Part shown: positions 8,972-63,572 of the stretch, piece after piece
Position numbering within the stretch: position 1 is the first letter of the stretch
Layout of the letters: each line of letters begins with the position of its first letter
DNA from: Dehalococcoidia bacterium
GTDB taxonomy: Bacteria > Chloroflexota > Dehalococcoidia > Lucifugimonadales > UBA3495
Direction of reading: 5' to 3'
DNA length: 64,000 bases
Assembly: GCA_965197655.1 (NCBI GenBank)
Contig: OZ240220.1
Coordinates: 804,412 to 868,411, forward strand
The notes under the pieces: generated by a model
Databases searched by the model: none
The model's input: only the letters and a program-made list of their open reading frames with translations
Told to the model about the DNA's origin: nothing
Position numbers and translations under genes: made by a program

Positions 8972-9118
8972 GGCTATCGCATTTGGAATCGGGAGAATCC
9001 GTCATTCCTGCGCAAGTCCATCATTCCTGCGAAAGCAGGAATCTGGCGGCGTCAGGGGCAGAGGTTTCTGCCTCCGCAGGAACGACGGATACCCTCCTCG
9101 ACTCCAAATGCGATTGCC
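8972..9118. repeat. PAL-1 nested palindromic element (outer IR GGCTATCGCATTTGGA / TCCAAATGCGATTGCC)
   Basis: Core arms are GTCATTCCTGCGAAAGCAGGAAT ... TTTCTGCCTCCGCAGGAACGACGG. Intergenic. Confidence 0.85.
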
Positions 9119-9227
9119 CTGTATTAGGGGATAGCCTGGCTTGCCAGCAAACCGGGCCGAGATTATCCTTATAGTGTGGCAGCGTTAGTTTTGGAAGCAG
9201 TATCGTTGCAATTGGGAGGGTTTGAAG

Positions 9228-9446
9228 ATGGCTGTGCGGAGAACCGCATACGCTTGCGTCAAGTGCAATAACAATAGCTACACCACCGATGAGTTTCGGG
9301 CCACCGGGGGCGGTTTCTCCCGGTTCTTTGACGTGCAGAACAAGAAATTCACCACCGTGTCCTGCTCGCAGTGTGGCTACACCGAAATCTACCGGGGCGA
9401 TACCTCCAAGCTGGGCAACGTCCTCGACTTCTTTGTGGGCGGCTAG
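9228..9446 (+). CDS. zinc-ribbon domain protein
   Basis: Two CxxC pairs (CVKCNN ... CSQCGY) in about 72 aa, with a GGGAGGG RBS upstream. Confidence 0.7.
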   Translation: MAVRRTAYACVKCNNNSYTTDEFRATGGGFSRFFDVQNKKFTTVSCSQCGYTEIYRGDTSKLGNVLDFFVGG

Positions 9447-9532
9447 ACAGCCGCGAGGCGCCTTTTGCGCATCTATCGATATTCCCGGTATATGTGTTGG
9501 GGTTCCCCATATCAATAAGGCTACTCTGGTAG

Positions 9533-9735
9533 GAGCGGGTTTGAAACCATCGGTTCCAACTAATGCGATTGCTCACCGCAAAAAGCAATCTTTCCGTCGT
9601 TCCTGCGAAGGCAGGAACCTAAAACCGTGAAGCCAGAGGTTCCTGCCTTCGCAGGAACGACGACTAAGGGTAAACCTACGGGCAAGGCGCTTGCAAGGCC
9701 AATTAGTTGGAACAGCTGGTTTGAAACCCGCCCCT
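9533..9735. repeat. PAL-1 element with GCGGGTTTGAAACC/GGTTCCAACTAAT outer module
   Basis: The core is CCGTCGTTCCTGCGAAGGCAGGAACC...GGTTCCTGCCTTCGCAGGAACGACG (9594..9662). Outer arms pair at 9533-9562 and 9700-9735. It lies between convergent genes. Confidence 0.85.
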
Positions 9736-9797
9736 CCGTTTTGGTTATACTAACCCGCCTCAGGAATACCCATTTATCGCCAGGCTCCTCGGGTCTG

Positions 9798-10574
9798 TTA
9801 GAACAGGGACTTGGACTGGCCGCCGTCCACGTTGATGCAGGCCCCGGTTATCAGGTCGGCCCGGTCTGAGGCGAGGAAGGCCACCGTTTCGGCTATCGGT
9901 TCCGGCCAGCCAAACCGGCCCATGGGCAGGTTGCGGTTGATAAACTCGGACACCACTTCCGGCGGCTGGGTATTCTGGAACCGCTCCCAGGTGCTGCCGG
10001 GGAAGTCAATGGAGCCGGGGGCCACGCAGTTGACCAGTACACCGTGGGGCGCCATCTGCAACGCCAGGTGCTTGGAAAAGGCGATCAACCCTGCCTTGCC
10101 GGTCATGTAATCTATCGAGCCACCGTGTTCCCGTCCGTAGATTGAGGAAATGTTGATTATCCGACCCCAGCCCTGATCCTTCATGTGCGGCAAGGCCAAC
10201 GCGGTCAGGTGTACCGCGCTGAACAGGTTGACCTCCAGGCCGTCCCTGAATTGGGCCATGCTGGTCTCCTCAAACAGAGTCGAACCGCGGCGGCCCCCCA
10301 CGTTGTTGACCAGGATGTCCGGGTCGCCCAGGCCGGCGACGGTCTCCTCGTAGAAACGAACGGCCTGCGCCTCCTCGGTCACATCCGCCGGCGTCCCCTG
10401 AACTCGATAACCCAGCCCGGCCAACTCGGCCACCGAGTTGTTGAGTTGAGTCTCGTCCCTGGCGCAGATGGCTATTTGGCAACCTTCCCGCGCCAGGGCC
10501 TCGGCAATCTGCCGGCCCAGGCCCCGGCTGCCTCCGGTAATCATCGCTGTTTTGCCGTTCAATCCCAGGTCCAT
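9798..10574 (-). CDS. SDR family oxidoreductase
   Basis: TGGSRGLG cofactor motif and a YMTGK active-site region (YxxxK). The start is set at the internal Met (MDLGLNGKTAMITGG). Confidence 0.85.
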   Translation of the reverse strand: MDLGLNGKTAMITGGSRGLGRQIAEALAREGCQIAICARDETQLNNSVAELAGLGYRVQGTPADVTEEAQAVRFYEETVAGLGDPDILVNNVGGRRGSTLFEETSMAQFRDGLEVNLFSAVHLTALALPHMKDQGWGRIINISSIYGREHGGSIDYMTGKAGLIAFSKHLALQMAPHGVLVNCVAPGSIDFPGSTWERFQNTQPPEVVSEFINRNLPMGRFGWPEPIAETVAFLASDRADLITGACINVDGGQSKSLF

Positions 10575-10758
10575 TTTCACTCCCCTCCGGCTGTTCGGTA
10601 CGGTCGCCGGCCCATTACTATCAGATTTGGCAGACTTGGAAATGCGGTTCAGGTAACCTCTGCTCCGCCTCCGCCGATTATAGTCCTTGTACCCGGTTAT
10701 GCCCATTCATTTGCAATGAACGTAAATGTTCAGTCTTGAGGAGTTGTTCCCGCCTTAA

Positions 10759-10859
10759 ACCGTCATTCCGGCCTGCGCCGGAATCCAGAGACGCCAAGTA
10801 GGAGTTGGCATTCCAGAGGACAAGGATACCTGGATTCCGGCGAAAGCCGGAATGACGGT
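10759..10859. repeat. PAL-1-like divergent variant (GTCATTCCGGC...GCCGGAATGAC arms)
   Basis: ACCGTCATTCCGGCCTGCGCCGGAATCC ... GGATTCCGGCGAAAGCCGGAATGACGGT. Confidence 0.75.
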
Positions 10860-10970
10860 ATCGGGGCGCAGACGCCTCCCCAACTCTGGACATTTACGAT
10901 TCGTGCTTGGCCTTGACTTTGCACATATCCTGTTGACCGCTTCAAGCCGCTCTAGCCTACTACCTCGCTG

Positions 10971-10979
10971 TGCTATAAT
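10971..10979 (+). promoter_or_regulatory. extended -10 promoter candidate upstream of LLM paralog 1
   Basis: TGCTATAAT (TGnTATAAT) about 115 nt upstream of the ATG at 11093. There is no good -35. Confidence 0.3.
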
Positions 10980-11092
10980 TAGCCGGCTGTATCTACAATG
11001 TTACCGATTAATTGAGTAATCCTTTTCGGGTTAGTAAGGGGCAAATAAATCTATCCTTGAAAGGCAGACCAGATAACACAGGGAGTTAAGGC

Positions 11093-12268
11093 ATGATAAA
11101 GCGGTTTTCCGTCTTGTACGTCGGGCAGATTGACCTGGATAACGTGGGGGCCGGCGGCACCCCGGCCAATGATCGAAGGTATCCCAACGAAAAGCTGATT
11201 CAAGCCTACGACCACGCCGTTGCTCTGGCCAAGCACCTGGATGAGTTGGGCTTTTACTGTATGTGGACGGCGGAACATCATTTCCAGCGGGAGGGCTATG
11301 AGTGCCTCCCCAATATGACTCTGCTGGGCGTCCACCTGGCCGGGCTTACCAAGCAGTTGAAGTTTGGTGCCGCGTTCAACATAGTTCCGATGTGGCACCC
11401 CCTGCGGCTGGCTGAGGACTTTGCCATGGCCGACGTTCTTACCGGGGGCCGGCTGATTTTCGGCGTAGGCCGGGGCTACCATTCCCGCGAGGTGGAGACC
11501 TTCGGCTCGCCGGTAATTGACAATGACGCCAACCGGGAACTCTTCGAAGAGCAGATGGAAGTAATCCAGAAAGCCTTTAACGAAGAGTCCTTTAGCCACA
11601 AGGGCAAGTACTACACCATCCCGCCGGATGTTCCCTACCGTGGTTATCAGGTTGAGGATGTTACTTTGGTACCCCGCCCCCTGAAGCGTCCGGTGGAGAT
11701 TTGGCAGCCCATCGCCAGCGGCAAGACGCTGGAGTATATCGCCCAGCGGGGCATCAAGGCCATGGTGGCCCTTACCGGCGAAGTCCTGGTGGACCGGATG
11801 TTCCACTCCTACCACGATGCCGCCGTGGCCGCCGGTCGTTCCATCACCCTCGGCCAGGACATGGCGTTGGGTTTCGGTTTCTGTCTTGACGACACTCAAC
11901 AGAAGGCAATTGAACGGATTCGGCCCTATCACGACGAGCGGTACAAGTGGTTCGCTCCCTTTGGCTTTGTCCGTTATACCGACGATCAGGGCCGGCCCTG
12001 GGGTACTCCGGGCGCGCCGGTGGGCGTTCCCAGGATTGAGGACGGCGTACAGCAGAAGGCTTGGTACTGCGGCCCGGCTCAGGACTTCATTCCCTTCCTC
12101 CATGAAGTCGAGGCCAAATACCCCGGCCTGGAAGACGTAATCCTGCAATGGCCGGAGGGTATGCCCTGGCTGGAGTTCAAAGACCAGCTTTCCCAATTCG
12201 CCGCTGCGGTTATGCCGGCCTTCGCCGGACGCCACGCGGCATCCCTGGCCGGTGACGACGGAAACTAA
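11093..12268 (+). CDS. LLM-class (luciferase-like) flavin-dependent oxidoreductase, paralog 1
   Basis: 391 aa with a TIM-barrel LLM pattern (WTAEHHF, GRLIFGVGRGY). The 408-aa antisense ORF is rejected. Confidence 0.85.
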   Translation: MIKRFSVLYVGQIDLDNVGAGGTPANDRRYPNEKLIQAYDHAVALAKHLDELGFYCMWTAEHHFQREGYECLPNMTLLGVHLAGLTKQLKFGAAFNIVPMWHPLRLAEDFAMADVLTGGRLIFGVGRGYHSREVETFGSPVIDNDANRELFEEQMEVIQKAFNEESFSHKGKYYTIPPDVPYRGYQVEDVTLVPRPLKRPVEIWQPIASGKTLEYIAQRGIKAMVALTGEVLVDRMFHSYHDAAVAAGRSITLGQDMALGFGFCLDDTQQKAIERIRPYHDERYKWFAPFGFVRYTDDQGRPWGTPGAPVGVPRIEDGVQQKAWYCGPAQDFIPFLHEVEAKYPGLEDVILQWPEGMPWLEFKDQLSQFAAAVMPAFAGRHAASLAGDDGN

Positions 12269-12314
12269 GGTATTCAAACATGGATAGACCGGATTTCCGG
12301 CCCATCCGTCTAAG

Positions 12315-12466
12315 AAACCTCTGAATAAGTCCGTGACTCGTGATGTTTACACTTATCCGTCGTTCCTGCGCCGGCAGGAACCTAAAACGTTACGTACAGA
12401 GGTTCCTGCTTTCGCAGGAACGACGGGTGAAGGCGCTAGTGTTCAATGACTTATTTAGAGTATCCC
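12315..12466. repeat. PAL-1 element, CTCTGAATAAGTC outer module
   Basis: The core is 12356..12426. Outer arms are AACCTCTGAATAAGTC / GACTTATTTAGAGTATCC. Confidence 0.85.
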
Positions 12467-12516
12467 TAAGTTATACAAGTTGGGCCGATAAAGGAGTATT
12501 TCCTGGCAACCCCTCC

Positions 12517-12864: not shown

Positions 12865-12979
12865 AGTTAGTCAAATCCAGCCATCAATTTGACGGCAATT
12901 CTAGGGTAAAGCGGCCAGACTTTCCACTGCCGGGTGATATTCACACAATACGCCGGGCAACCGTGGGGCAGAGAGGTCA

Positions 12980-13110
12980 GGGCAATCGCACTAGGATTGA
13001 AAGCTATCCGTCGTTCCTGCGAAAGCAGGAACCTAAAGTGTTGCGGACAGAGGTTCCTGCTTTCGCAGGAACGACGGGAAAGGGGAATCTGCCATCACGT
13101 GCGATAGTCC
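12980..13110. repeat. PAL-1 element, GGGCAATCGCA outer module
   Basis: The core is 13008..13077. Outer arms are GGGCAATCGCA / TGCGATAGTCC. Confidence 0.85.
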
Positions 13111-13266
13111 TGGCAGAAAGGCAACTTTGCAATACTCCGAGTCGCTGCGTCTCTGTGTGAAAATGGGCAAATTGTTCAGCCGTTGAGCCGGCTTTACCAA
13201 TGGCTTATACTTACCCGTATTCCCCGCCGGCGAAGGTCGGCCATCAACTCCCCTGAGGAGGCGGTT

Positions 13267-16148: not shown

Positions 16149-16201
16149 CCGGGGTATTCCCCAAGCTATTGGATATTGCAAACGTAGGGGCGGGTTTCAC
16201 A

Positions 16202-16336
16202 GGGCTATTGCATTTGGATTGGAGGCTATCCGTCGTTCCTGCGAAAGCAGGAACCTGGAATATTGCAGACAAAGGTCCCTGCTTTCGCAGGAACGACGGG
16301 AGAAGGGCCTTTACCGTCAAGTACGGTTGCCGGGGC
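16202..16336. repeat. PAL-1 element (right outer arm degraded)
   Basis: The left half is identical to that of the copy at 61562. The core is 16230..16298. Confidence 0.8.
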
Positions 16337-16353
16337 GGGTTTCAAACCCGCCC
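16332..16353. repeat. HP-3 hairpin GGGGCGGGTTTCAAACCCGCCC
   Basis: A GC-rich 8-9 bp stem with a TTCAA loop, directly abutting a PAL-1 copy. Confidence 0.8.
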
Positions 16354-17176: not shown

Positions 17177-17286
17177 ATTCTTGCCCCCTTTATTTTAACC
17201 CCGTCGGTCATTGTAGGATGTCCTTTTGGAAGGATTGTAACCTGCGCCGGATTAGAGTCAAGGGCGGTGACCGGCAAGGGTTAATA

Positions 17287-17415
17287 GGGCTATCGCACGT
17301 GATGGCAGATTCCCCTTTCCCGTCGTTCCTGCGCAGGCAGGACCTAAAATGTTACGGACAGAGGTTCCTGCTTTCGCAGGAACGACGGATAACTTTCAAT
17401 CCTAGTGCGGTAGCC
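17287..17415. repeat. PAL-1 element, GGGCTATCGCA module, inverted relative to 12980..13110
   Basis: GGGCTATCGCACGTGATGGCAGATTCCCCTTTCCCGTCGTTCC ... CGACGGATAACTTTCAATCCTAGTGCGGTAGCCC. Confidence 0.85.
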
Positions 17416-17523
17416 CCGGCCAGAGGCAAGCTCATCAATTGACCCTGCTGCCCGCTGCGAATAGAATGTTCCGGCCCGGATGTAGGAAGAACTGGGCAGA
17501 ATGAGGACGTATTTGCCTGCCGG

Positions 17524-18226: not shown

Positions 18227-18240
18227 CTGGTTTTGTAACA

Positions 18241-22906: not shown

Positions 22907-23059
22907 GGATACTCTGAATAAGTCATTGAACACTAGCGCCTTCACCCGTCGTTCCTGCGCCGGCAGGAACCTCTGTACGTAACATTTTAGGTTCCTGCCG
23001 GCGCAGGAACGACAGATAAGTGTAAACATCACGAGTCACGGACTTATTCAGAGGTTTCC
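22907..23059. repeat. PAL-1 element, CTCTGAATAAGTC module (inverted relative to 12315..12466)
   Basis: GGATACTCTGAATAAGTC ... GACTTATTCAGAGGTTTCC. Confidence 0.85.
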
Positions 23060-26257: not shown

Positions 26258-26330
26258 GGGGGTGTAGCTCAGTCGGGAGAGCACCTGCTTTGCAAGCAGG
26301 GGGTCAGGGGTTCGAATCCCCTCACCTCCA
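26258..26330 (+). tRNA. tRNA-Ala (anticodon UGC)
   Basis: GGGGGTGTAGCTCAGTCGGGAGAGCACCTGCTTTGCAAGCAGGGGGTCAGGGGTTCGAATCCCCTCACCTCCA folds as a cloverleaf. The anticodon loop is TTTGCAA, the G3:U70 Ala identity pair is present, and the sequence is followed by CCT rather than an encoded CCA. Confidence 0.92.
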
Positions 26331-28295: not shown

Positions 28296-28376
28296 ACTCA
28301 GGGAAAAGGAAGCACGAATCTGGTAGAATGTAGCGGGTAACTGAGGGGTCCCTTTTCTCCCGATAATGGATTCAGA

Positions 28377-28434
28377 GGGAGAGCACCTGCTTTGCAAGCA
28401 GGGGGTCAGGGGTTCGAATCCCCTCACCTCCACC
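28377..28434 (+). repeat. 58-bp direct repeat, copy 2 (orphan 3' part of tRNA-Ala; putative attR)
   Basis: Identical to 26275..26332. This copy is followed by A, giving an encoded CCA. There is no tRNA 5' half upstream. Confidence 0.9.
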
Positions 28435-31804: not shown

Positions 31805-33184
31805 ATGCTGCCGACACTAGCGCTCAATGAAAAGACTTACAGCGAATATCTTGCCGCGGACGGCTCATTGCATCCCAGTTATCGGGAAGCCCTGACCGCC
31901 ATTGACGGCATGGGCGTTGCCGGGCTGCGGGATATTTGGCGGCAGGGCAAGCGAGAGGCCGCCCTCGACGCCGTGTCCTTCCTGCTTGACCCCAATGCCT
32001 TTCGGCCCATCCCCACCGACTGGATACCCCGAATCATTCCCAAGGCCGAATGGGACGTTATCAGCGCCGGCGTAGAGCAGCGGCTCAAGGCCTTAAATCT
32101 GTTTCTGCTGGACCTCTACACCGGCGAGCAGAAGGTCGTCCCGGAGGACGTTATCTACTCCTGCCAGTATTTCTACCCGGAGTACCAGGGCTTTCACCCG
32201 GCAAAGGATACTTTCGTTCACATTTACGGCATTGACCTGGTCCACCTGAAGGACGGGCGGTATGTGATCCTGGAGGATAATTTGCGGATTCCTTCCGGGA
32301 TTTCCTACCAGCTCAAATCCGTCGAAATGGCAAAAAGCCTGATGCCGGAGTTGGCGGCGGCCTACGACGTCGTTCCCTACGACATAAAGGCAACTTACCT
32401 GGACCTGTTCACCTCCCTCTGCGACGTCGACAACCCGGTCTGCGTCCTCCTGACCGACAGCAAGTTCGGGGCGGCGTTCTTTGAACACCGCTACCTGGCC
32501 GAGTTGCTGGGTATTCCCCTGGTGGAAGGCTCGGACTTGTATGTCGGCTACGACGGCCGGGTGATGGTCAAGGCCCTGGACGGCGACGTGGCGGTGGACC
32601 TCATCTACCGCCGGGTAGAAGACCTGGAGATTTTCGTTCCCGGCCTGACCGAGGCTTACCTGCAAGGTAAAGTCGTGATGGTTAACGGGATGGGCACCAG
32701 CGCCGCCGATGACAAGCTGGTCTTTATGTGGGTACCGGAGATGATTCGCCACTACCTGGGCGAGGAGCCGATATTGGAACAAGCGGTCAGCTACGATTTG
32801 CAGGACGACGAAAGCTGGAAGTACGTGCTGGATAATCTGGACAAGATGGTGGTAAAGACTCGCCAGGGCTACGGCGGAATGGGCGTTTACGTTATGCCCG
32901 ATTTGGGCGGGGACTACCGCACTAATCTGGCGCGGAGTATCATTGAAGAACCCAGGGTGTTCATCGCCCAGGAAACCCTGGATTTTTCCAGGCATTTGAT
33001 CTTTGATGATGAAACCGGAGAGTTCGAGGAGCGTTACATCGACCTGCGGGTGTTCGCCGTGCAAAACGGGCGCGGCGAGGCTACGGCCTTCCCCGGCGGC
33101 CTGACCCGGGTATCCAAGGCCAACAGTCGCATTACCAATAACTCATCGGGTGGGCTATGCAAACCAACCTGGGTGGTTCGATAA
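31805..33184 (+). CDS. circularly permuted type-2 ATP-grasp protein
   Basis: DGRYVILEDNLRIPSGISY, VVKTRQGYGGMGV and the C-terminal ITNNSSGG are typical of the family. Confidence 0.85.
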   Translation: MLPTLALNEKTYSEYLAADGSLHPSYREALTAIDGMGVAGLRDIWRQGKREAALDAVSFLLDPNAFRPIPTDWIPRIIPKAEWDVISAGVEQRLKALNLFLLDLYTGEQKVVPEDVIYSCQYFYPEYQGFHPAKDTFVHIYGIDLVHLKDGRYVILEDNLRIPSGISYQLKSVEMAKSLMPELAAAYDVVPYDIKATYLDLFTSLCDVDNPVCVLLTDSKFGAAFFEHRYLAELLGIPLVEGSDLYVGYDGRVMVKALDGDVAVDLIYRRVEDLEIFVPGLTEAYLQGKVVMVNGMGTSAADDKLVFMWVPEMIRHYLGEEPILEQAVSYDLQDDESWKYVLDNLDKMVVKTRQGYGGMGVYVMPDLGGDYRTNLARSIIEEPRVFIAQETLDFSRHLIFDDETGEFEERYIDLRVFAVQNGRGEATAFPGGLTRVSKANSRITNNSSGGLCKPTWVVR

Positions 33185-34059
33185 GTGAGGCCGGTATCGT
33201 CGCCAGCTACAGCTATGCGGCCCGATACCACTACACCGATGTGGTGGTGCAAAACGATAATTTCCTGAGGTTGTCGGCTTGTGCCGATACTTATCAAACG
33301 CCCGTGACCGCCTCGGTCATGACCTCGCCCGTCAGCCGTCCCGCCCAATTCCGGGATGCCTACGGCAACATCACCCATCGGGTCAGGGTAACCACTCCTC
33401 ACCAGGAGTTAATCATTCTGGCCATTGGGGTTGTGCGGATAGAACTGCCGCCGGCCTTGCCCGCGGAGGTAGCGATGCGCTCCCTGGTGTTTGACCAGTC
33501 GGTTAATGAGTTTCTGACGCCCACCCCCCTGGTGGACCCGGAAAAGCTGGCCGCTATAGCTCGTGACATCACCTGGGGAGCTGAAGGTCTGTTGGAGTCG
33601 GTGACGCAGATTACCGACTGGGTTTACCGAAATATCAACTACGTGAAGCAAAGCACGACGGTGGCAACTACCGCCGAACACGTCCTGGCCTCTGGCATGG
33701 GTGTTTGCCAGGACAAGGCCCACCTGGCAATGGGATTCCTGAAGGCGCTGGGAATCCCGGCGCGGTACGTGAGTGGCTTGTTGGCGACCCAGGTGGGAGA
33801 AACCCATGCCTGGTTGGAGTTCCTGCATCCCCAACTGGGCTGGCTGCCGGCAGACCCTACCCGGGGCCAGGCGTTGGCCGGAAATGGAGATTTGATTAAG
33901 TTCGCCGTGGGCCGGGACTATACCCAGGCGGCCCCGGTGGAAGGCACCTTTGTCTCCCGGGGTTCCGGTTGGCTGGATACCGCCCTGGCCCAAGTCCAGC
34001 TTGAGGCTGATCTGGTGTCTTTTGACGATGCTCTCAGGTTGATTGAAAATCGGTTCTAA
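33157..34059 (+). CDS. transglutaminase family protein (N-terminal Bact_transglu_N-like plus transglutaminase core)
   Basis: Catalytic-Cys context GMGVCQDKAHLAMGFLKALGIPARYVSG and a downstream HAWLEF. It overlaps the ATP-grasp gene by 28 nt. Confidence 0.85.
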   Translation: MQTNLGGSISEAGIVASYSYAARYHYTDVVVQNDNFLRLSACADTYQTPVTASVMTSPVSRPAQFRDAYGNITHRVRVTTPHQELIILAIGVVRIELPPALPAEVAMRSLVFDQSVNEFLTPTPLVDPEKLAAIARDITWGAEGLLESVTQITDWVYRNINYVKQSTTVATTAEHVLASGMGVCQDKAHLAMGFLKALGIPARYVSGLLATQVGETHAWLEFLHPQLGWLPADPTRGQALAGNGDLIKFAVGRDYTQAAPVEGTFVSRGSGWLDTALAQVQLEADLVSFDDALRLIENRF

Positions 34060-34215
34060 GGATACTCTGAATAAGTCGTACTTGTGCTGTTCACCCCCTA
34101 CTCGTCGTTCCTGCGAAAGCAGGAACCTCTGTACGTAACGTTTTAGGTTCCTGCCTGCGCAGGAACGACAGATAAGTGTAAACATCACGAGTCATGGACT
34201 TATTCAGAGGTTTCC
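34060..34215. repeat. PAL-1 element, CTCTGAATAAGTC module
   Basis: It starts directly after the transglutaminase stop codon and is nearly identical to 22907..23059. Confidence 0.85.
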
Positions 34216-34238: not shown

Positions 34239-34766
34239 ATGACTGAGCCCAGGTCTTTGACTGCTTCCCAAAGCAGTTGGTTAATTGATTCCCGGGTTTA
34301 CAATCTCATCTGGATGGGCCGGTGGTTGGAGCGGACGGAGCTAATTTCCCGCGCGGTGAACACCGCCGCTCGCCGCGTTCAGCAGACCGGCGGTGATGAA
34401 CCGGAGCTTGTAGATGAGCTTTGTCCCATTGCCGATTTCCTGGGGGCGGCGCTTGCCGACCGAGCCGACGTAGCCAGTGAGATTCTATTGAATAACCCGG
34501 CATCGTCGGCGTTGCAATGCTTGTCCAAAGCCAGAATGAACGCCACCCAGGTTGCGCCGGTGGAGGTGATTCGGGCCATCGCCGCAATCATCCTTGACTT
34601 GGAGGCGGCGGACGCTGACTCCCTCCGATTGCCGGAACAGGTGATAGAAATTACGGCAGGAATCAACTCCGGCCTTGAGGTCGTCTTTAAGGCTATTGAA
34701 GACCGCTGGTTTGGCCGCGAGTCTCTTACCGAGGAAGAGGTCTTTCACCGATCCGTGCAGCAATAG
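34239..34766 (+). CDS. alpha-E domain protein (short, 175 aa)
   Basis: YNLIWMGRWLERTE matches the alpha-E N-terminal signature (YWMGRYLERAE-like). It is roughly half the usual length. Confidence 0.6.
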   Translation: MTEPRSLTASQSSWLIDSRVYNLIWMGRWLERTELISRAVNTAARRVQQTGGDEPELVDELCPIADFLGAALADRADVASEILLNNPASSALQCLSKARMNATQVAPVEVIRAIAAIILDLEAADADSLRLPEQVIEITAGINSGLEVVFKAIEDRWFGRESLTEEEVFHRSVQQ

Positions 34767-34784
34767 CAGCCGGGCAGACTGCCT

Positions 34785-34897
34785 ATCCGTCATTCCTGCG
34801 AAAGCAGGAATCCAGGGGCGTCAGGGGCAGAGGTTCCTGCCGGCGCAGGAACGACGGGTGAAGGCATTAGAGCTTAATGACTTATTCAGGGTATCCC
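34785..34897. repeat. PAL-1 element, chimeric (spacer as in 8972 copy, right arm of CTCTGAATAAGTC module, left outer arm absent)
   Basis: The spacer GGCGTCAGGGGCAGAGG is shared with the 8972..9118 copy. The right flank is GACTTATTCAGGGTATCCC. Confidence 0.75.
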
Positions 34898-35612: not shown

Positions 35613-35659
35613 CCATCAGGCATCGGAAGACCCTTGCCAATTTTATCCTTGTTATCCCA

Positions 35660-35790
35660 GGGCTATCGCACTAGAATTGAAAGCTATCCGTCGTTCCTGC
35701 GCAAGCAGGAACCCCTATCCGCAACATTTTAGGTTCCTGCTTTCGCAGGAACGACGAGAAAGGGGAACCTGCCATCACGTGCGATAGCCC
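35660..35790. repeat. PAL-1 element, GGGCTATCGCA module
   Basis: GGGCTATCGCACTAGAATTGAAAGCTATCCGTCG ... GCCATCACGTGCGATAGCCC. Confidence 0.85.
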
Positions 35791-35915
35791 TCCTTCTTCT
35801 CCCCCTCCTCATTGTACTAATGCTATAGTGTCAGCAACGCCGCCGGCCCCGCTGGCGATTTCTCTTGGTCGTGGGCCGGTATTCCGGTCTGACATCTTTG
35901 GCACAAAGGAACTAA

Positions 35916-37163
35916 ATGGCCCAACTGTTGGCACGTTTTAAGGCAGCTACCCCCCGACTCCCGGCCTTTCAGGCCTTGCGTTACGCTAATTTCCGCTGGT
36001 TCTGGCTCAGCACCGCCGGCCAGGCAATGGCCCAGGGGATGCAGTTTCTAATCCTCGGCTGGCTGGTGCTCGCCCTTACCGACTCAGTTTCCCAACTAGG
36101 GCTGACCGCATTCTTCTATGGCATACCGAACCTGACTCTCGTGCTGTTTGGCGGCATTTTTGCCGACCGCATTAACCGCCAAAAACTCCTCGTAGTATCC
36201 CAAACCGGCGTAACCATAATCATTTTTGCTGTTGCCACCCTGGCTATAACCAATCTGGTGGCCGTCTGGCAGATTTTCGCTGCCTCTTTTCTGCTGGGGA
36301 CGCTTCACGCAATCAATATGCCTACCCGTCTCGCAATGGTGGTAAACCTGGTGGATCGGGATGACATAATGAACGCCGTGGTGCTTAATGCGGCGGTGAT
36401 GAACACCGGGCGGATAGTCGGTCCGGCCCTGGCTGGCGGAATCATCGAGCTGTTGGGCATCGGCCCAGCCCTTTACATCAATGCCGGTTGCTACCTGATG
36501 GCGGCCGGTTGCGTCCTGCTTATCCGCAACTTCGGCCAGGACCGGCCGGCCCGAAAAACGGATATTTTCCGAGACTTGTTGACCGGGCTGGACTACTTTA
36601 TAAAGACGCCGGTGGCGTTTACCGTCATCGGGGTAGGGTTCGCTTTCGGGTTCTTTGGGATGCCCCACGTCCAGGTGATGCCCGCTTTTGCCAAGGAAGT
36701 GCTGGGGGTGGGCGCCGCGGAAGCCGGGCTACTTATCACTGCCGCCGGGTTGGGGTCGTTGCTGGCTAACGTCTTTCTGGCCTTGCTGGGCAACTTCCGC
36801 CGCAAGAACTTGCTGCTAATCGGCTCGGTCTTGCTCTTTGAGCTCAGCCTGTTCCTGTTTGCCTGGTCGCAGTGGTTCTGGCTTTCCTGGGGCATCTTGC
36901 TTTTCGTCGGTGCGGGGAGTATCGGTTACATCTCCCTGGGCACCACGGTGCTGCAACTAACCGTGCCATCGGAGTTGCAGGGTCGGGTGATGAGCTTGTG
37001 GTATGTGTCGGCCGGCCTGATGTTCATTGGCTCCCTGCCAATGGCGGTAGTGGCGGACTTCGTCAGTTGGCCCCTGGCCCTGGCTGGCGGCGCAGTAGTA
37101 AGTTTTGCTTTTACCCTCTGGCTGGCAATCTGGCGCCCGACCCTGCGCCGATTGCAGATTTAG
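35916..37163 (+). CDS. MFS transporter (12 TM, EntS/MFS_3-like)
   Basis: N-terminal FQALRYANFRWFWLSTAGQAMAQGMQFLILGWLV and hydrophobic throughout. Confidence 0.85.
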   Translation: MAQLLARFKAATPRLPAFQALRYANFRWFWLSTAGQAMAQGMQFLILGWLVLALTDSVSQLGLTAFFYGIPNLTLVLFGGIFADRINRQKLLVVSQTGVTIIIFAVATLAITNLVAVWQIFAASFLLGTLHAINMPTRLAMVVNLVDRDDIMNAVVLNAAVMNTGRIVGPALAGGIIELLGIGPALYINAGCYLMAAGCVLLIRNFGQDRPARKTDIFRDLLTGLDYFIKTPVAFTVIGVGFAFGFFGMPHVQVMPAFAKEVLGVGAAEAGLLITAAGLGSLLANVFLALLGNFRRKNLLLIGSVLLFELSLFLFAWSQWFWLSWGILLFVGAGSIGYISLGTTVLQLTVPSELQGRVMSLWYVSAGLMFIGSLPMAVVADFVSWPLALAGGAVVSFAFTLWLAIWRPTLRRLQI

Positions 37164-37313
37164 GAATACTCTGATTAAGTCATTAAACTCTGGCGCTTTC
37201 ACCCGTCGTTCCTGCGAAAGCAGGAACCTCAAACGTTGTGGACAGAGGTTCCTGCTTGCGCAGGAACGACGGGTAGGTGTAAACAGCACAAGCCACGGAC
37301 TCATTCAGAGGTT
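37163..37313. repeat. PAL-1 element, CTCTGA(A/T)TAAGTC module
   Basis: It starts at the MFS stop codon and lies between convergent genes. Confidence 0.85.
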
Positions 37314-37455
37314 ACTTAGGGCGGAGGTAGAGATTCAGCCGCAGTTTTGCCCGTAGGCTGCCGGCGTAATAGGAAATCCAAGCTCGAAGCTGCCACACAA
37401 CCCGACCAAGGCCAATCCGCTCAACAGTACCGGCGCTCACTCGTTTATTACAAAG

Positions 37456-38955: not shown

Positions 38956-38984
38956 GAAATTGAAGTGGACCGCTTACCTGATGC

Positions 38985-39132
38985 CGCTGTCAGGGCTATC
39001 GCATTAGGCCGAAGAAGAGAACCCCTCGTTCCTGCGAAAGCAGGAACCTCTGTTCTCAAGGTTGTGTTCCTGCCTTCGCAGGAACGACGTATAGTGCCCG
39101 TTTTGGTTCATGCGATAGCCCTGATGCGGCTG
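38985..39132. repeat. PAL-1 element, GGGCTATCGCA module with extended outer IR
   Basis: GCCGCTGTCAGGGCTATCGCA ... TGCGATAGCCCTGATGCGGC. Confidence 0.85.
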
Positions 39133-39235
39133 TTCGTTTCGGTAGTTTACCGAAACTATTGTGGATACAATTGGCGGCAACAAGGGGTTTACGTATTAAC
39201 CGCCCCGTCCCGCATCATTAGAAAAGGAAATAACG

Positions 39236-40448: not shown

Positions 40449-40672
40449 AGGGGTGGGTTTCAAACCATTGGTTCCAACTAATTGGTCATTAGAAACTAAT
40501 GAATTGTCCTACAAGCGTCTTGCTCGTAGGGTGACCCTTACCCGTCGTTCCTGCGTAGGCAGGAACCTCAAACCTTGAGGCCAAAGGTTCCTGCCTACGC
40601 AGGAACGACGGATCACTTGCTTCTCCGTTGAGCAGTCGAATTAGTTGAAGCGGATGGTTTTAAACCCGCCCT
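40449..40672. repeat. PAL-1 element with GGGTGGGTTTCAAACC/GGTTCCAACTAAT outer module
   Basis: Same architecture as 9533..9735. The core is 40541..40610. Confidence 0.85.
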
Positions 40673-40823
40673 TGCACCGCCAGTGTTGCCGGAGAAGTAA
40701 AAGATGGCGAGAGCGGCTTGATTGACTACAACCAACAGGTAGAGTAACTTTACAACCAATCCCAAGGTACGCTGCCGGGCGGGTGGCCGGAGTAGGCTGC
40801 CCTGAATCTGCCGGCCAGGAGGC

Positions 40824-58603: not shown

Positions 58604-58737
58604 TTTTAGTTGTCATTCTGAGCGGAGCGAAGAATCCTAACTCTTGCCGCTAGAACCGCCGCTGGCGCTGAGTGTATGGTCGGGGAATGAGGATTTTGGA
58701 TTCTTCGTCGCTCCGCTCCTCAGAATGACAACTAAAG
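58604..58737. repeat. PAL-2 element
   Basis: TATTTTAGTTGTCATTCTGAGCGGAGCGAAGAATCC ... GGATTCTTCGTCGCTCCGCTCCTCAGAATGACAACTAAAGG. Confidence 0.85.
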
Positions 58738-58774
58738 GACCCTGCACTCTGTTGCTGAGATACAATAGGGATAG

Positions 58775-60034
58775 TCACAGCATATTTGGAGTCGATTCGA
58801 CGGATTCATCGGCCTGAATCAGCTCCTCGGCGTAGCGAATTATCTTGTCGCGTCGCTGCGGTTCAGCCTCCCGGCTTTCCAGGTAAAGCCGCAGCGCCTG
58901 CATTGGCTGCAAATCGTCTGCCGAATCGCGATCTAACCGAGTGCGACGCGGGCCGTCTAGCTCCAGACTAACGGCGGCGATGTAGTGGGCTGGCTGCAAG
59001 GCTTCCCGGATTTCGCCCTCCCGGAGCGGGGTGGACACTGCCGCCGGCGCCCGAACCCGAACCCGCACCACGGCGTCGGCAATATCGCGGCGGGAAATGG
59101 CCCGCAGGACGGCAGCGGTGGGGTCCGGCTCACCCGGCGGGACTTGAACATCAATGGTTACAAAGGGGCGGGCTTGCACCGGCTGGAAACGAAAGTCCAC
59201 CAGCCGCTGTCCCTGAGGAGCTTCGGTGTCCAGGTCAATTACGCAAAATCCCTTATCGTCCCCCTCCTCGGAAAAATCCACTCGCTGCAAGCTGCCGGAG
59301 TAAACCACCATTGGCGGTTCCCGGCGTAGAACCTGGTGCTTGTGGATGTGGCCCAAGGCAACGTATTCCAGTTCCGGGCGGTGAACGGCGCTGACCAGCA
59401 GTACATGGTCGTTGCCTAGCATCATGGAGCGTTCGGTACCCACGGTCGAGCCGTTGATGGTAACGTGGCCGGAAAGGATGGCCGGAATGTCAGGGTCTAA
59501 GGCATCCACCCGGGCCTGAATGCCAATGGTCATAACCTCTTCTATTCTTTGGCGGACCTCTTCGATGGTCAGCCCTCGAGATTCCTCGCGGGTCAATATC
59601 CCGCCCCGCCTGGGCCAGGGAACGGCTACAACCTGAAGAGGGCCGGCCGGCGTGCTTATGTTGTAAGTCTGTAAATTGTCGCCGATGTGAACATTCGGCA
59701 CCTGAAGCGTGGGGAAAATCTCCACGGCGTTGGCGCGGCTGCTGGCGTTAGGCAGGTCGTGATTGCCCACCAGCAGAAACACCGGGACTCCCGCCGAGGA
59801 CAGCGTGTGCAGCCGCCTGGCAAACTCCCGCTGGTGGGTCTGGGAAGGGTCGCGGCCCTTGTAGGCGTCGCCGGCCAGCAGCACCAGGTCCACCTGCTCG
59901 TTCAGGGCAAACTCCACGACTTCATCCAGCGAACCCAGAAAGTCCCCCAAGCGGGTGGAAAGTCCGGTTGCCGGGTCAATCCGGCCATAGTTTTCCACGC
60001 CGATATGCAGGTCGGAGAAATGGAGGATACGCAT
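58775..60034 (-). CDS. sbcD: SbcD/Mre11-type metallophosphoesterase nuclease
   Basis: MRILHFSDLHIG, LLAGDAYK, GNHD and GHIH motifs. No sbcC lies adjacent. Confidence 0.8.
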   Translation of the reverse strand: MRILHFSDLHIGVENYGRIDPATGLSTRLGDFLGSLDEVVEFALNEQVDLVLLAGDAYKGRDPSQTHQREFARRLHTLSSAGVPVFLLVGNHDLPNASSRANAVEIFPTLQVPNVHIGDNLQTYNISTPAGPLQVVAVPWPRRGGILTREESRGLTIEEVRQRIEEVMTIGIQARVDALDPDIPAILSGHVTINGSTVGTERSMMLGNDHVLLVSAVHRPELEYVALGHIHKHQVLRREPPMVVYSGSLQRVDFSEEGDDKGFCVIDLDTEAPQGQRLVDFRFQPVQARPFVTIDVQVPPGEPDPTAAVLRAISRRDIADAVVRVRVRAPAAVSTPLREGEIREALQPAHYIAAVSLELDGPRRTRLDRDSADDLQPMQALRLYLESREAEPQRRDKIIRYAEELIQADESVESTPNML

Positions 60035-60275
60035 GACTTACCTCATACTGCTTGGGCCGGTTACTCCAACCGGAGACTTGACGGCAAGTATAGCAGAAGA
60101 ACGGGAGAGCTTTCCGGCGGAATGCTCCGGTGAGATTTATCCTAATCCCCGACAACTATCTGATTCATTGATTGAAGTTATAGTTGACATTGACAATATG
60201 CGGTCAAGGTCAATAGAATCACTGTGTCCAAATAACTATTGTCAGGACAATCATTTAAGCTATTCAGGCGGCTAG

Positions 60276-60977
60276 ATGACCACAGTAAAACAACTGTATT
60301 CTCTTCAGGAGCTAGACCTCGACTTGGATGGTGTTAATCACCGGATAGCCGAGGCAGAGAAGGAATTGGAAACCCGCTTGTCATTGGGCCAGCTTGAGGA
60401 ATCTCTGGAGCAGGCCAGGGTCCGGCTGCAGGAAATCCAGAGTGCGCATCGGAACCTGCAATTGGATACGGAACGCCAGCGGGAACGCTCGGCCCTTTTA
60501 GACACGCAGCTGTACGGCGGCGACCTTGCCAATCCGAGGGATTTGGAAGCGTTGCAGTTGGAAGCCAGCAATGTCCAGCATCAAGTGGAGCAGCAGGATG
60601 TTAAGCTCCTGGAGCTTTCCCTGCAATCGGAGGATACCCGAGCCACGATAGCGAGGCTGGAGCAGGAACTGACGGATAGGCAGTCGGTCTGGGAAGCGCG
60701 TCAAGCTGAGCTATGGGAACAGTTAGAGGAATTGACCGACCGGCAGGAAGCCTTGATGAAAGACCGGGCCGCGCTGGCTGCCGGGGTTGACGCTATTGAA
60801 CTGACCCGCTATGAGGGCCTGCGTAGGAACAAGGGCGGGCAGGCGGTAGCCCGGGTGGTGCGGGGCCTGTGCCAGGCCTGTCGAATGTCTCTGCCGACCC
60901 AACACCTGCAACGGGTAAGGGCCGGTCGCCAAACCGTTCTTTGCAACAGTTGCGGTCGGATGTTACTGCCCGGCTAG
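60276..60977 (+). CDS. coiled-coil plus C4 zinc-ribbon protein (DUF164/COG1579-like)
   Basis: A long coiled coil followed by CQACRMSLP ... CNSCGRML. Confidence 0.75.
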   Translation: MTTVKQLYSLQELDLDLDGVNHRIAEAEKELETRLSLGQLEESLEQARVRLQEIQSAHRNLQLDTERQRERSALLDTQLYGGDLANPRDLEALQLEASNVQHQVEQQDVKLLELSLQSEDTRATIARLEQELTDRQSVWEARQAELWEQLEELTDRQEALMKDRAALAAGVDAIELTRYEGLRRNKGGQAVARVVRGLCQACRMSLPTQHLQRVRAGRQTVLCNSCGRMLLPG

Positions 60978-61561
60978 GAAGCCGGCGCTCTCCTTTGACT
61001 TTTGGCCGGTTCTTTACATCACCTGGCGCCCACTACCGGAGCGCTTTCCTCTCAACCCGGACATCAACCCGCGATTGCCCGGTTCTGCCAATGCCTGCCG
61101 ATTTGTGATTCTACCGGCTGACCAGGGGCCGGTTAAAGAGGCGTCGGCAGGACGCGTTTTGGCACGCCCCGCCGTTCCTACCGGGGATAGTTGTTCCCGG
61201 GCCAAGGTCGGCCCGTTGACGGGTTTGCCAGGGCCGCAGCGTCCGACCTACCGGGTACTTGCCGGTGAGGTGCGTCTTGGGGTTGGGGAGGCAATCCCCC
61301 GACCTTATCCCGTCCGTCGAACCGCTTTTCGCCGGCTGCTTGGCCGGGTAGTGGTTTCAAGATTTCCGGCCTTGGGCCGGGAGGCTCTTGAGGGCCTGGA
61401 ACCTGGGAAAGGGGTTGCCACTTCGAAGTGGGCCTAACCTTGCCTTGGGGTAGGGTATGCCGGTAATCCTGCTTCCAGGGTTGATATGCGACGGCCATCT
61501 GCATATTTTCAGACTAGAGACGGGTCAAGCAGTATGTCAATAGGGTGTGGGACATAAATCA

Positions 61562-61692
61562 GGGCTATTGCATTTGGATTGGAGGCTATCCGTCGTTCCT
61601 GCGGAGGCAGGAACCTAAAACGTTGAGGACAGAGGTTCCTGCTTTCGCAGGAACGACGGGAAAAGGGCCTATATCGTCACGTGCGATTGCGC
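61562..61692. repeat. PAL-1 element, GGGCTATTGCA module
   Basis: GGGCTATTGCATTTGGATTGGAGGCTATCCGTCG ... TCGTCACGTGCGATTGCGC. Confidence 0.85.
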
Positions 61693-61808
61693 TGGGACAT
61701 AGATTTTAATTTGGGGCGGGTTGGCGGGATGAAGGGTTAAGACGGCATTGACCTGGGAGAGTTTCAGGGTCTTTTGATAGCCACCGTCGAGTAACAGTTC
61801 AGAGTTGA

Positions 61809-61935
61809 GGGGATTCGCCAGGGTAAGAAATCCCGTCGTTCCTGCGCAAGCAGGAACCTTGCTAACCGCAATTCGAGGTTCCTGCCGGCGCAGGAACGAC
61901 GGAAAAAGAGAAGCTGCCATCACGTGCGATTGCCC
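61809..61935. repeat. PAL-1 element (left outer arm degraded)
   Basis: The core is 61834..61903. The right arm is GCCATCACGTGCGATTGCCC. Confidence 0.8.
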
Positions 61936-61990
61936 TATGGGTAGCCTCTCCTTCCTTGACCCTCCCAGGGGGGTATGCTAGAGTGCGGTT

Positions 61991-62516
61991 GGAGAGGCCA
62001 GGTAAAACCGGGTGACCGCCGCAGTGAGGGTTACCTTGCTGGGGAGGAAAGTCCGGGCTCCACCGGACAGGGTGCTGGGTAACGCCCAGGCTCCTGTGAC
62101 AGCTTTACCGCTGTTCCAGGGGACGGATAGTGGCACAGAAACATACCGCCTCCGGGCTATTTCGCGGAGTTGTGGTTCCTCGGAATTGCGACTTCAGGGA
62201 AAGCCGGCGGCAAGGTTGAAATCGGACGGTAAGAGCGTCCGGTCGCTTGTGGTGACACAGCGACGGCTAAACCCCACCTGGAGCAAGGCCGAATAGAGGG
62301 ACTAGGGGCGTCCGGCTCGTCCCCGGGTTGGCTGCTTGACCCCGATGGCAACGTCGTCCGGCGTAGCGCTTGCTATTTCGGACTGCGGGAATTGTCCGCG
62401 GACATTCCTGTGAGGGGCTAGATAGATGGTCACCGCCCGCCGCGCCTCAGTAATTTTTACGCGAGGCCAGTCGGTGGGATACAGAACCCGGCTTACAGGT
62501 TTTCCCGGTTCTCTCC
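61991..62516 (+). ncRNA. rnpB: RNase P RNA, bacterial type A (long variant)
   Basis: Conserved blocks GGAGGAAAGTCCGGGCTCC, ACAGAAACATACCGCC, GGTAAGAGCG, AAACCCCACCTGGAGCAAGGCC, GATAGATGGTCACC and ACAGAACCCGGCTTA. The 5' GGAGAG pairs with the 3' CTCTCC. The ends are approximate. Confidence 0.88.
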
Positions 62517-62630
62517 ACTTCCTTAACACCCAGGGCTTCCGCTTGCGCCGGCTTGGAAGGTGGAGATTGGGGTAGTATAAATCATTACCCAGGCAAGCTA
62601 TTCGTCGTTTGGCGATAATCAGGAGAGGGC

Positions 62631-63404
62631 ATGGTTCGAACCAACAAAACCAAAGCGAAAATTGCCGAGGGACAGGTAGCCATCGGCGCCAGTATCAACT
62701 TTTACGCGCCGGGGCTGGTGGAATTGTACGGCGTAATGGGATTCGATTGGGTCTGGATTGACTGCGAGCACGGCTCCTCCAACGATTCCGAGACGGAAAA
62801 CATGGTGCGGGCCGCCGAGCTTTACGACCTGTCGCCCATTGTGCGGATTCCCAATGCCTATCCCTCTACTATTTTGCGTTTTCTCGACCGGGGCGCCCAG
62901 GGTCTTATCGTGCCGCATATATCCACCCGGGAGGAGGCCGAGGGGGTGGCCCGCGCGTCCCACCACTACCCGGAAGGCGACCGCAGCAGCGCCACCGGAG
63001 GCCGCACCAACCGGTTTGGCGCCGGACTTTCTACGCCGGAATACTACGCCGCCGCCAACCGGGAAGTTCTGGTTATCGTGATGATTGAAACGCCGGAAGC
63101 GGTGGAAAACGTCCCGGAGATTGCCGCCGTTCCCGGTGTTGACGCTCTCCTGGTAGGCAGCAGCGACCTTACCCAGACAATGGGCATGGCCAGCCCCGCC
63201 GAGTTGGACGCGGCCATTGACCGGGTGATTGAGGGGACCAAGGCGGCGGGCAAGGCTGTGGGGGTAGCCAGTGCGGGAATGACCCTGGGCAATGTTGAGC
63301 GGTTCCGGCACTTTGCCGGCCGCGGGGTCCAGCTTCTTTCGGTAGGCGCCCAGGATATGATTCGCAGCGGCGGCGACGGGTTTCTGAAGGCTATGCGGAG
63401 CTAA
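62631..63404 (+). CDS. HpcH/HpaI aldolase family protein
   Basis: GFDWVWIDCEHGS, VRIPN and a MIETPEAVENVPEIAAVPGVDALLVGSSDL pattern. Confidence 0.85.
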   Translation: MVRTNKTKAKIAEGQVAIGASINFYAPGLVELYGVMGFDWVWIDCEHGSSNDSETENMVRAAELYDLSPIVRIPNAYPSTILRFLDRGAQGLIVPHISTREEAEGVARASHHYPEGDRSSATGGRTNRFGAGLSTPEYYAAANREVLVIVMIETPEAVENVPEIAAVPGVDALLVGSSDLTQTMGMASPAELDAAIDRVIEGTKAAGKAVGVASAGMTLGNVERFRHFAGRGVQLLSVGAQDMIRSGGDGFLKAMRS

Positions 63405-63447
63405 CGGATGGGGTTCGTGTTGGGGTGGTTGCCGGGTTATTGTATTG

Positions 63448-63572
63448 GGATAGCGGGCTATCGCTATCCGTCGTTCCTGCGGAGGCAGGAACCTCTGTCC
63501 GCAAGGTTTTAGGTCCCTGCCTGCGCAGGAACGACGCGAAAGGGACGACTGCCGTCAGGTGGGATAGCTCCG
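63448..63572. repeat. PAL-1 element, GGGCTATCGC module
   Basis: The core is 63468..63537. It lies downstream of the aldolase gene. Confidence 0.8.

Follow-up and report, generated by a model that had tools for sequence, protein, structure and literature searches.

CGTC-tagged hairpin dimers as probable passengers of several unrelated miniature transposable elements in a Dehalococcoidia genome

A 64-kb window (G000:C1:804412-868411, the whole stretch of DNA analysed here) of the single-contig, 4.135-Mb genome of a Dehalococcoidia bacterium (59.5% G+C) holds 16 copies and one variant of a palindromic repeat with a shared core of ~70 bp. Our analysis indicates that this core is probably an inverted dimer of CGTC-tagged repetitive extragenic palindromic (REP) hairpins, which rides as a passenger in the middle of four or more unrelated families of MITEs (miniature transposable elements with inverted repeats). 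According to this reading, DDE transposases of the ISAs1, IS5 and IS66 families of insertion sequences (IS), acting in trans on the ends of the elements, would have made the ~400 copies, and neither the nuclease Ssn nor a REP-associated tyrosine transposase (RAYT) would have done so. Below, plain coordinates refer to the window, those with the prefix C1 to the genome contig, and G002, G003 and G004 denote congeners.

In the window, the arm search pattern GTTCCTGCGMARGCAGGAAC (up to two mismatches allowed) gave 32 matches, which form 16 inverted pairs at positions 9023, 9599, 12362, 13013, 16235, 17325, 22951, 34107, 34792, 35693, 37208, 39028, 40547, 61595, 61838 and 63473, as against no match in 100 shuffles. 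The arm-to-arm distance is 38–41 bp, so that the spacers measure 18–21 nt, and a few spacer types recur. In the 17th element (10761-10857) the twin is formed by hairpins of a second, related type, ATTCCGGC, with a spacer of ~47 nt. Every copy lies between long open reading frames (ORFs), and the six copies at 33-41 kb also lie between blocks conserved in congeners. The pattern search and the ORF map thus agree with the original prediction, made from the window sequence, of 16 copies plus one variant, all intergenic, built on a ~70-bp core of two inverted hairpin arms with recurrent spacer types; the predicted density of about one copy per 3.8 kb was obtained again on recounting, and the spurious ORFs that the elements had been said to create are real, the cited peptide PSFLRKQEP being the translation of CCGTCGTTCCTGCGAAAGCAGGAACC as read straight from the sequence. 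Genome-wide, 913 arms were counted as 394 twins and 125 singles, at a density of one copy per 10.5 kb, which makes the window ~2.7-fold denser. Rfam at gathering thresholds recognised RNase P RNA and tRNAs in the window and no family over the repeats, and a full-text literature search with the arm sequence returned unrelated primer matches only.

The core reads C-CGTC-GTTCCTGC-GNNR-GCAGGAAC-C, followed by the spacer and the mirror image. Among the 859 arms that can be oriented by their GTC tag, the C located 5′ of GTC is present in 97%, the stem bases in 96–100% and the tail C in 95%; the first stem base is G in 89% and A in 11% of the arms, and the second is T. This agrees with the CGTC-1 family of REPs (Di Nocera et al., 2013; PMC3733652), which includes Neisseria dRS3 and Rickettsia RPE-6, in the CGTC tag, the 8-bp stem, the 4-nt loop and the conserved tail base, in the predominance of inverted dimers with spacers of 20–100 bp that can fold as one long hairpin, and in a patchy copy number among related species with no RAYT. 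It differs in that those stems begin with two A-T pairs, whereas most arms here begin with GT (AT in ~11%), and in having T where those REPs have C or G (CTGC). The arm is also identical at 22 of 28 positions to the Neisseria NTS CGTCATTCCCGCGMAVGCGGGAATCYRG, which is the recognition motif of SsnA, a GIY-YIG single-strand DNA nuclease of ~94 aa (Chenal et al., 2025; PMC11893778); the two further share the tag, the stem length, a loop polymorphism (G-M-A-V versus G-N-N-R) and a conserved C that follows the palindrome and matters more than any other base to the binding of SsnA (PMC11893778). Folded as single strands, whole elements reach -44.9 and -41.7 kcal/mol with z about -10, and the core alone reaches -26.3 kcal/mol versus -8.6 for one arm.

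The dimer shared between unrelated frames has sharp limits at CCGTC and GACGG, and the linkers between this shared core and the element ends, 17–22 nt long, are unrelated between sub-families. Clustering of the 60 nt on each side of all twins gave half-modules that pair in preferred combinations, corresponding to the following frames.

Frame A: ends CAGGGCTATCGCA, 13 bp; length 133-136 bp; 162 twins with both ends and 50 more with one end; target duplication of 10 bp, sometimes 9 bp; ISAs1 family
Frame B: ends GGATACTCTGAATAAGTC, ~18 bp; length ~152 bp; 68 twins with both ends; target duplication of 4 bp, YTAR; IS5 family
Frame D: ends GTAACWGTTCAG, 12-17 bp; length 135 bp; 26 twins with both ends; target duplication of 8 bp; IS66 family
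Frame C: ends CATCYGTTCCAACTAAT, ~17 bp; length ~170-190 bp; 20 twins with both ends; target duplication of 9-10 bp; parent not found

Only 30 of the 394 twins are without any recognised end. The duplications were assessed by comparing the mean number of matches between the two flanks of each element with that of shuffled pairings of flanks. For frame A (10 bp) the mean was 6.23 versus 2.78 in the control, with 24 of 161 duplications perfect and 53 matching at 9 or more of 10 positions; for frame D (8 bp) it was 7.54 versus 2.29, with 17 of 26 perfect and 24 matching at 7 or more of 8; for frame C (9-10 bp) it was 5.8–5.95 versus 3.5, with 5 of 20 perfect at 9 bp and 3 of 20 at 10 bp. For frame B (4 bp) it was 3.44 versus 2.75, with 45 of 68 perfect, and its flanks are nearly always CTAA, TTAG, CTAG or TTAA, that is, YTAR, the target typical of IS5. 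Mean pairwise identity within a family is 94% in D, 86% in B, 75% in C and 70% in A, the last of which comprises several sub-families. The elements are small and non-coding, and have terminal inverted repeats and duplications of fixed, family-specific length, as MITEs do. Their modular, MITE- or REP-like nature had been recognised beforehand, and the three outer modules named at that time are all present in the window; the view of one family, PAL-1, in swappable wrappers has to be given up, since what had been taken for wrappers are the termini of four or more MITE families that are unrelated to one another. A single family with diverged ends is ruled out as well, because the duplication lengths and the parent IS families differ. 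Twins at G000:C1:2507440-2507580, 2818400-2818520 and 3540100-3540260 that carry none of these ends lie inside another palindromic repeat with ends like TTATCCACGAAGGNNCACGAATA, which may be a fifth kind of frame. A further tagged hairpin type, TGTCATTCTGAGCGGAGCGAAGAATCC, and its relatives were seen at G000:C1:1011300-1011440, 1628424-1628541 and 1994833-1994949; it adjoins the IS5-family copy described below and also forms the inner part of C-type frames that are without the GTTCCTGC core.

Candidate parents with matching ends are present in the genome for frames A, B and D. An ISAs1-family element of 1.2 kb (C1:3187940-3189156) has 13-bp ends equal to the A ends and is flanked by a 9-bp duplication, GGCCTAAGA; its transposase gene carries frameshifts and a stop. 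The sole long element with ends matching those of B is an IS5-family element (C1:1011445-1012678, ends GGAACCTCTGAAYAA), the gene of which is interrupted. The ends of an IS66-family element (C1:1355573-1357005) are the same as those of D over 24 nt, its duplication is TTCCTTGG, and its transposase gene is frameshifted. Each of the three is present in a single copy with a broken gene. Given that the parent copies, and both ssn genes described below, are broken, the families are probably mostly fossil. Three long stretches considered as cargo-carrying D-type elements (C1:194583-195814, 2933741-2935275 and 1951897-1955042) are bounded by D- or C-type ends and were rejected as spurious pairings of neighbouring MITE ends or as having no transposase.

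Comparison with congeners points to movement of the elements. The five species of the genus contain 869, 850, 93, 2 and 1 arms, and counts across the family range from 0 to ~200. Around 33-41 kb, gene order is kept among congeners at 82–87% identity and the conserved blocks end at the edges of the elements. The upstream gene ends in ...TTTTAG in G004, while here it ends in ...TTCTAA followed by the element at 34060-34214. The intergenic spacer 38956-39217 holds an A-type element (38991-39123) and the same spacer in G002 (G002:C1:909170-909533) holds a B-type instead, which points to separate insertions at a single site that is either tolerant or favoured. As G002 contains ~93 arms and ~49 B-type copies, the GTTCCTGC dimer is essentially a B-type passenger there. 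That congeners have from 1 to 850 arms, together with the empty sites, means that the elements moved in the past, as read from these genome comparisons. The original prediction had raised active mobilisation and had proposed looking for target-site duplications and empty sites; both were found, the former far above the shuffled controls and the latter in congeners, and past movement is thereby supported, while present activity is doubtful given the broken parents and the worn ends and duplications of the A, B and C types. Short tandem arrays of half-units or whole elements occur in G003 (G003:C2:2278814-2279017 and 2397159-2397610; 4-5 copies at a spacing of 68 bp or 192 bp), with short CCGTC-containing pieces repeated beside arms.

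The mosaic look of the elements has several sources. The IS5-type MITE targets YTAR, and the CTAA/TTAG in the spacer of another core is often where it lands: 7 of 68 B copies lie at the CTAA of such a spacer, and cores are also split at this CTAA/TTAG by other elements and by a 2.3-kb IS. Another preferred landing site is a 23-bp hairpin repeat, GGGGCGGGTTTSAAACCCGCCCC, which is separate from the elements and present in 106 copies genome-wide; C-type and some A-type MITEs have landed in its loop, with 9-10 bp of the repeat duplicated, and in the window it flanks elements at 9530-9547, 9719-9735, 16186-16199, 16335-16350 and 40656-40675. Since each arm is itself palindromic, the arms also act as direct repeats, which accounts for single-hairpin A and B elements of 92-102 bp, one arm having been lost by arm-to-arm deletion. 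Spacers are flipped at fixed outer orientation in 3 of 21 D elements and in the A(1,4) combination (2 inverted versus 8 in the main orientation); cross-family chimeras number at most ~18, e.g., a D-left/A-right element at 61791-61937 that retains the D spacer; and A-type halves are reassorted, L1 being joined to R3, R4 and R10 and L2 to R3, R5, R9 and R10. Arm loss, spacer flips and chimeras could all have arisen by slippage and recombination between identical arms. Recombination among modules, as had been predicted, is thus seen in chimeras, flipped spacers and single-arm deletions, and nesting comes in addition. The elements of the window are as follows.

8969..9121: A-type (ISAs1-derived) MITE with twin core; one arm is an ATTCC...GGAAT stem variant; both ends match CAGGGCTATCGCA; flanks tatcggggga / tattagggga resemble a worn duplication
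9548..9718: C-type MITE with ends CATCGGTTCCAACTAAT and twin core, inserted within a GGGCGGGTTTGAAACCCGCC hairpin's loop; target duplicated as gggtttgaaac / gtttgaaaccc in the flanks
10722..10897: variant; IS66-type frame GTAAATGTTCAG...CTGGACATTTAC carrying a second-type twin CGTCATTCCGGC..GCCGGAATC with ~47-nt spacer; same architecture at C1:281816, 695644 and 913167
12314..12465: B-type (IS5-derived) MITE with twin core; 4-bp duplication CTAA on both sides
12978..13112: A-type MITE with twin core; flanks ggcagagagg(t) / gcagaaagg resemble a worn duplication
16200..16334: A-type MITE with worn right end, in a GGGGCGGGTTTCAAACCCGCCC hairpin; perfect 10-bp duplication GCGGGTTTCA
17285..17418: A-type MITE; sub-terminal linkers in opposite orientation
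22907..23058: B-type MITE; duplication CTAA / CTAA
34060..34214: B-type MITE; duplication CTAA / CTAA, the left CTAA containing the TAA stop of ORF 33157-34059; site empty in two congeners (G003 and G004)
34755..34896 (left boundary approximate): chimera; right half B-type (GACTTATTCAGGGTATCC + CTAA), left end unrecognised, one ATTCC-variant arm; absent from the orthologous spacer of G003 and G004
35658..35792: A-type MITE; as single-stranded DNA one long hairpin, -44.9 kcal/mol, z = -11
37164..37315: B-type MITE; duplication TTAG / TTAG, the left TTAG containing the TAG stop of ORF 35916-37163
38991..39123: A-type MITE; duplication gatgccgctgt / (g)atgcggctgt
40466..40656: C-type MITE within the loop of a hairpin of the GGGTGGGTTTCAAACCCGCC type; intergenic spacer 428 bp here versus only 78 bp in G004
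61560..61694: A-type MITE; duplication gggacataaat / ggacatagat
61791..61937: cross-family chimera; D-type (IS66) left end and D spacer joined to an A-type right half
63453..63572: worn A-type MITE

The start of two elements at a stop codon, reported originally for 34060 and 37163, is borne out, as the B-type elements at 34060 and 37164 directly follow the stops at 34057-34059 and 37161-37163; B-types start exactly there because the MITE used a YTAR that contains the stop codon. The chimeric nature of the element near 34785 is likewise confirmed. Two elements taken to be half-degraded are not so: the one at 16202 is an entire A-type, worn at its right end, whose duplication is perfect, and the one at 61809 is the D-left/A-right chimera. 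The 'GGGCGGGTTTCAAACC' that had been placed within the third module lies outside the element, being the duplicated target and part of the separate 23-bp hairpin repeat. Elsewhere in the window, a weak partial tRNA match at 28369-28424 (32.6 bits, model positions 9-63), ~2 kb downstream of a full tRNA (26258-26330), may be a tRNA fragment, and the RNase P RNA gene at 62000-62511 is unusually long (512 nt versus the 367-position bacterial class A model), with no copy of any genome repeat found inside it.

The dimer is not tied to one hairpin type or one frame. The second hairpin type has 219 arms and 80 twins in this genome and occurs in IS66-type and ISAs1-type frames and in one further kind, and the arms of G003 are of the ATTCCGGC/GTTCCGGC type with a 47-nt spacer, within CAGGGCAATCGCA (ISAs1-type) ends. 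Passenger and vehicle therefore assort independently.

Two small Ssn-like GIY-YIG genes are present in the genome (Pfam GIY-YIG matches of 1.9e-15 and 2.2e-14). One (C1:80382-80643) lies between inverted CGTCATTCCGGC...GCCGGAATCC hairpins of the ATTCCGGC type with the tags outermost, a layout equal to a twin in which the gene replaces the spacer; the other (C1:4062728-4063018) lies between two complete GTTCCTGC twins in direct orientation. Alignment with relatives showed that the first is damaged by a TGA at a conserved W (TGG to TGA), nine codons from the end, and the second by a TAA at conserved Q27 (CAA to TAA); both are otherwise well preserved, and the congener G002 has an intact copy. 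An intact orthologue in a congener, at OZ253548.1:203632-203913, shares 85% identity with the copy at 80 kb. The 80 closest Ssn-like relatives come from many phyla, at 64–85% identity, and a CGTC-tagged ATTCCNGC hairpin is located upstream of the gene in 62 of them, downstream in 63 and on both sides in 49, so that the pairing of gene and hairpins is the published Ssn architecture. In contrast to that system, both ssn genes here are nonsense-mutated, and G003 has 850 arms and no ssn. Since G003 reached this number without the gene and both copies here are broken, the spread of the repeats was independent of Ssn. A third small GIY-YIG gene (G000:C1:2973420-2973635, minus strand) is UPF0213/YhbQ-like and not Ssn-like; it is bracketed by a different repeat, ...GTGAGCCTGTCGAACCAC...CCCTTCGACAAGCTCAGGGTGAACGG, which also occurs beside elements of G003, and the two may be a second pairing of a nuclease with a repeat.

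Several points weigh against the dimers having spread as MITE passengers. No transposition event was observed, and mobilisation in trans is a reading of shared ends and duplication lengths, with all three candidate parents defective and a parent of the C-type not found in the genome. How the dimer entered four frames is also at issue: no MITE copy identical apart from a missing core was found in the genome, the sole core-less B-type element (C1:2240075) has an unrelated inner sequence, and the many unrelated linkers between the ISAs1 end and CCGTC are not what plain descent from a single MITE would give. The dimers may have invaded the centres of MITEs, MITEs may have been born around them, or exchange may have taken place at the arms. 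As for the link with Ssn, arms of the main hairpin type, both GTTCCTGC and ATTCCTGC, do not fit the degenerate SRM pattern that has been published, while the ATTCCGGC arms and the Neisseria NTS pass it; searches of PDB and NCBIfam with the Ssn-like protein gave nothing specific, and the assignment of the genes as Ssn is putative.

As an alternative, the hairpin dimer might itself be mobile, the autonomous form being hairpin-ssn-hairpin and the dimer its gene-less miniature, although we regard this as unlikely. Ssn would then nick single-stranded DNA outside the CGTC tags, freeing or copying the unit, which would enter the single-stranded loops of palindromes such as MITE centres, and the MITEs would only amplify it afterwards. 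The sharp CCGTC...GACGG bounds of the unit common to unrelated MITEs would follow from this, as would the occurrence of two hairpin types in several MITE frames each, the twin-like arrangement at the 80-kb ssn copy, where hairpins with outermost tags enclose the gene instead of a spacer, and the ~30 twins without a recognised MITE end; the cut made by SsnA, moreover, lies upstream of the tag by a few nucleotides (PMC11893778). However, for the dimer by itself neither a target duplication nor a target motif nor an empty MITE was found, and many of the 'naked' twins are worn A-types or lie within another palindromic repeat. The ssn pseudogene at 4.06 Mb sits between two complete direct-orientation twins and not inside one, and a count of 850 arms in the ssn-less G003, with both genes broken here, speaks against it too. 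Nor, to our knowledge, does Ssn have any recombinase or ligase activity.

The conservation of the hairpins bears on a different explanation, namely that the host keeps the dimers for a function. Divergence from the sub-family consensus is 1–3% in the stems and 1–4% in the tags, compared with 5–14% in the linkers, 7–9% in the A-type ends, 10–25% in the loops and up to 32% in the spacers, the spacer figure being inflated by flips. As the first measurement was made on pattern-selected arms, with a possible bias, it was repeated on elements defined by their ends alone, and the result held: both arms are perfect in 45 of 71 B-types and 53 of 141 A-types, and B elements so defined have stems ~1–3% divergent versus 13.6% for the linkers. 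In A-types the hairpins are thus kept more faithfully than the transposase-binding ends. This could reflect either homogenisation by gene conversion among the ~900 arms or selection on the hairpin. Under a host function, the dimers would protect or terminate transcript 3′ ends, bind a protein or serve as Ssn restriction targets on incoming single-stranded DNA, and their abundance would partly reflect selection. Stems and tags conserved 5–10 times better than linkers, and better than the A-type transposase-binding ends, would be expected then, and so would a paired change at the outermost stem pair (G-C to A-T), which was observed in 30 A-type copies; the elements are strictly intergenic and often located just after stop codons, and CGTC REPs elsewhere are mostly downstream of genes (PMC3733652). 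We nevertheless judge a host function improbable. Congeners live with one or two arms, the hairpins are not followed by a T-run and hence are not classical terminators, the placement after stops is explained by YTAR being what the IS5-type MITE targets, conversion among ~900 identical arms can give the conservation, and both ssn genes are broken.

Spread by a RAYT or another IS200/IS605-type enzyme, as in the REP doublets known as REPINs or as bacterial interspersed mosaic elements (BIMEs), would account for short palindromes paired in inverted orientation across a short spacer, in hundreds of copies, all intergenic and in mosaic combinations, and yet is next to untenable and was excluded, because a six-frame search of the whole genome (of which ~2% is unassembled) for Y1_Tnp (PF01797) gave no match while 6 of 14 control genomes were positive, the tag is CGTC and not GTAG, and the elements have terminal inverted repeats and duplications of 4-10 bp. 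We know of no single-strand 'peel and paste' element that makes either of these. The RAYT or IS200/IS605-type gene sought for on the strength of the original prediction is accordingly missing from the genome.

The view that the dimers are MITE passengers also sets the elements apart from each of the systems they resemble. Like bacterial MITEs such as Correia/NEMIS, RUP and Nezha, they are non-coding elements of 133-190 bp with terminal inverted repeats common to resident IS, family-specific duplications, intergenic location, insertion polymorphism and nesting; unlike these, several unrelated families (ISAs1, IS5, IS66 and one of unknown parentage) share one inner module, which accounts for roughly half of every element and shows stronger conservation than the ends. 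With REPINs/BIMEs and the NIMEs of Neisseria they have in common short-palindrome doublets and a mosaic of few module types, but here the mosaic would stem from nested transposition and from recombination at shared arms. Dimers inside longer palindromes were already seen in the CGTC-1 family, where the 'empty' form was never found and where movement of the repeats by 'a broad spectrum of transposases' was no more than a speculation (PMC3733652); in the present case, in a Dehalococcoidia (Chloroflexota) lineage, the longer palindromes are MITEs of named IS families with target duplications. The report on SsnA mentions neither MITEs nor Chloroflexota (PMC11893778), and the repeat numbers here would be owed, in contrast to that report, to MITEs moved by DDE transposases. 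Spread of CGTC REPs by MITEs was thus described neither in the 2013 paper (PMC3733652) nor in the 2025 one (PMC11893778).

A wider and speculative view, which we put forward with little confidence, is that CGTC-REP dimers are 'parasites of parasites', separate units which Ssn, by nicking just outside the tags, helps to make or move. Time and again they would invade unrelated MITEs at their single-stranded centres; alternatively, MITEs would be born around them when IS land ~20 bp on either side; DDE transposases would then spread the dimers, and hundreds of hairpins would make the cognate Ssn a liability, which decays. If true, this would account both for the nonsense mutations in the two ssn genes here and for the lack of ssn in a congener with 850 arms. 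It would also answer the question raised in 2013 as to how CGTC REPs, having no transposase themselves, manage to spread.

For CGTC REPs such as Neisseria dRS3/NTS and the Rickettsia RPEs, which had no transposase as of 2013 and were tied to Ssn in 2025, the route of multiplication has been open. The elements described here would provide an answer for one lineage, in which hairpin dimers probably multiplied as passengers of MITEs from at least three named IS families, independently of Ssn. In practical terms, they create many false ORFs and mark rearrangement-prone sites in Dehalococcoidia assemblies. Comprising two types of hairpin in several MITE frames, and present in congeners in 1 to 850 copies, they also form a natural test set for asking whether a strong central hairpin aids MITE transposition, whether conversion or selection maintains the arms, and whether Ssn is lost after the repeats expand.

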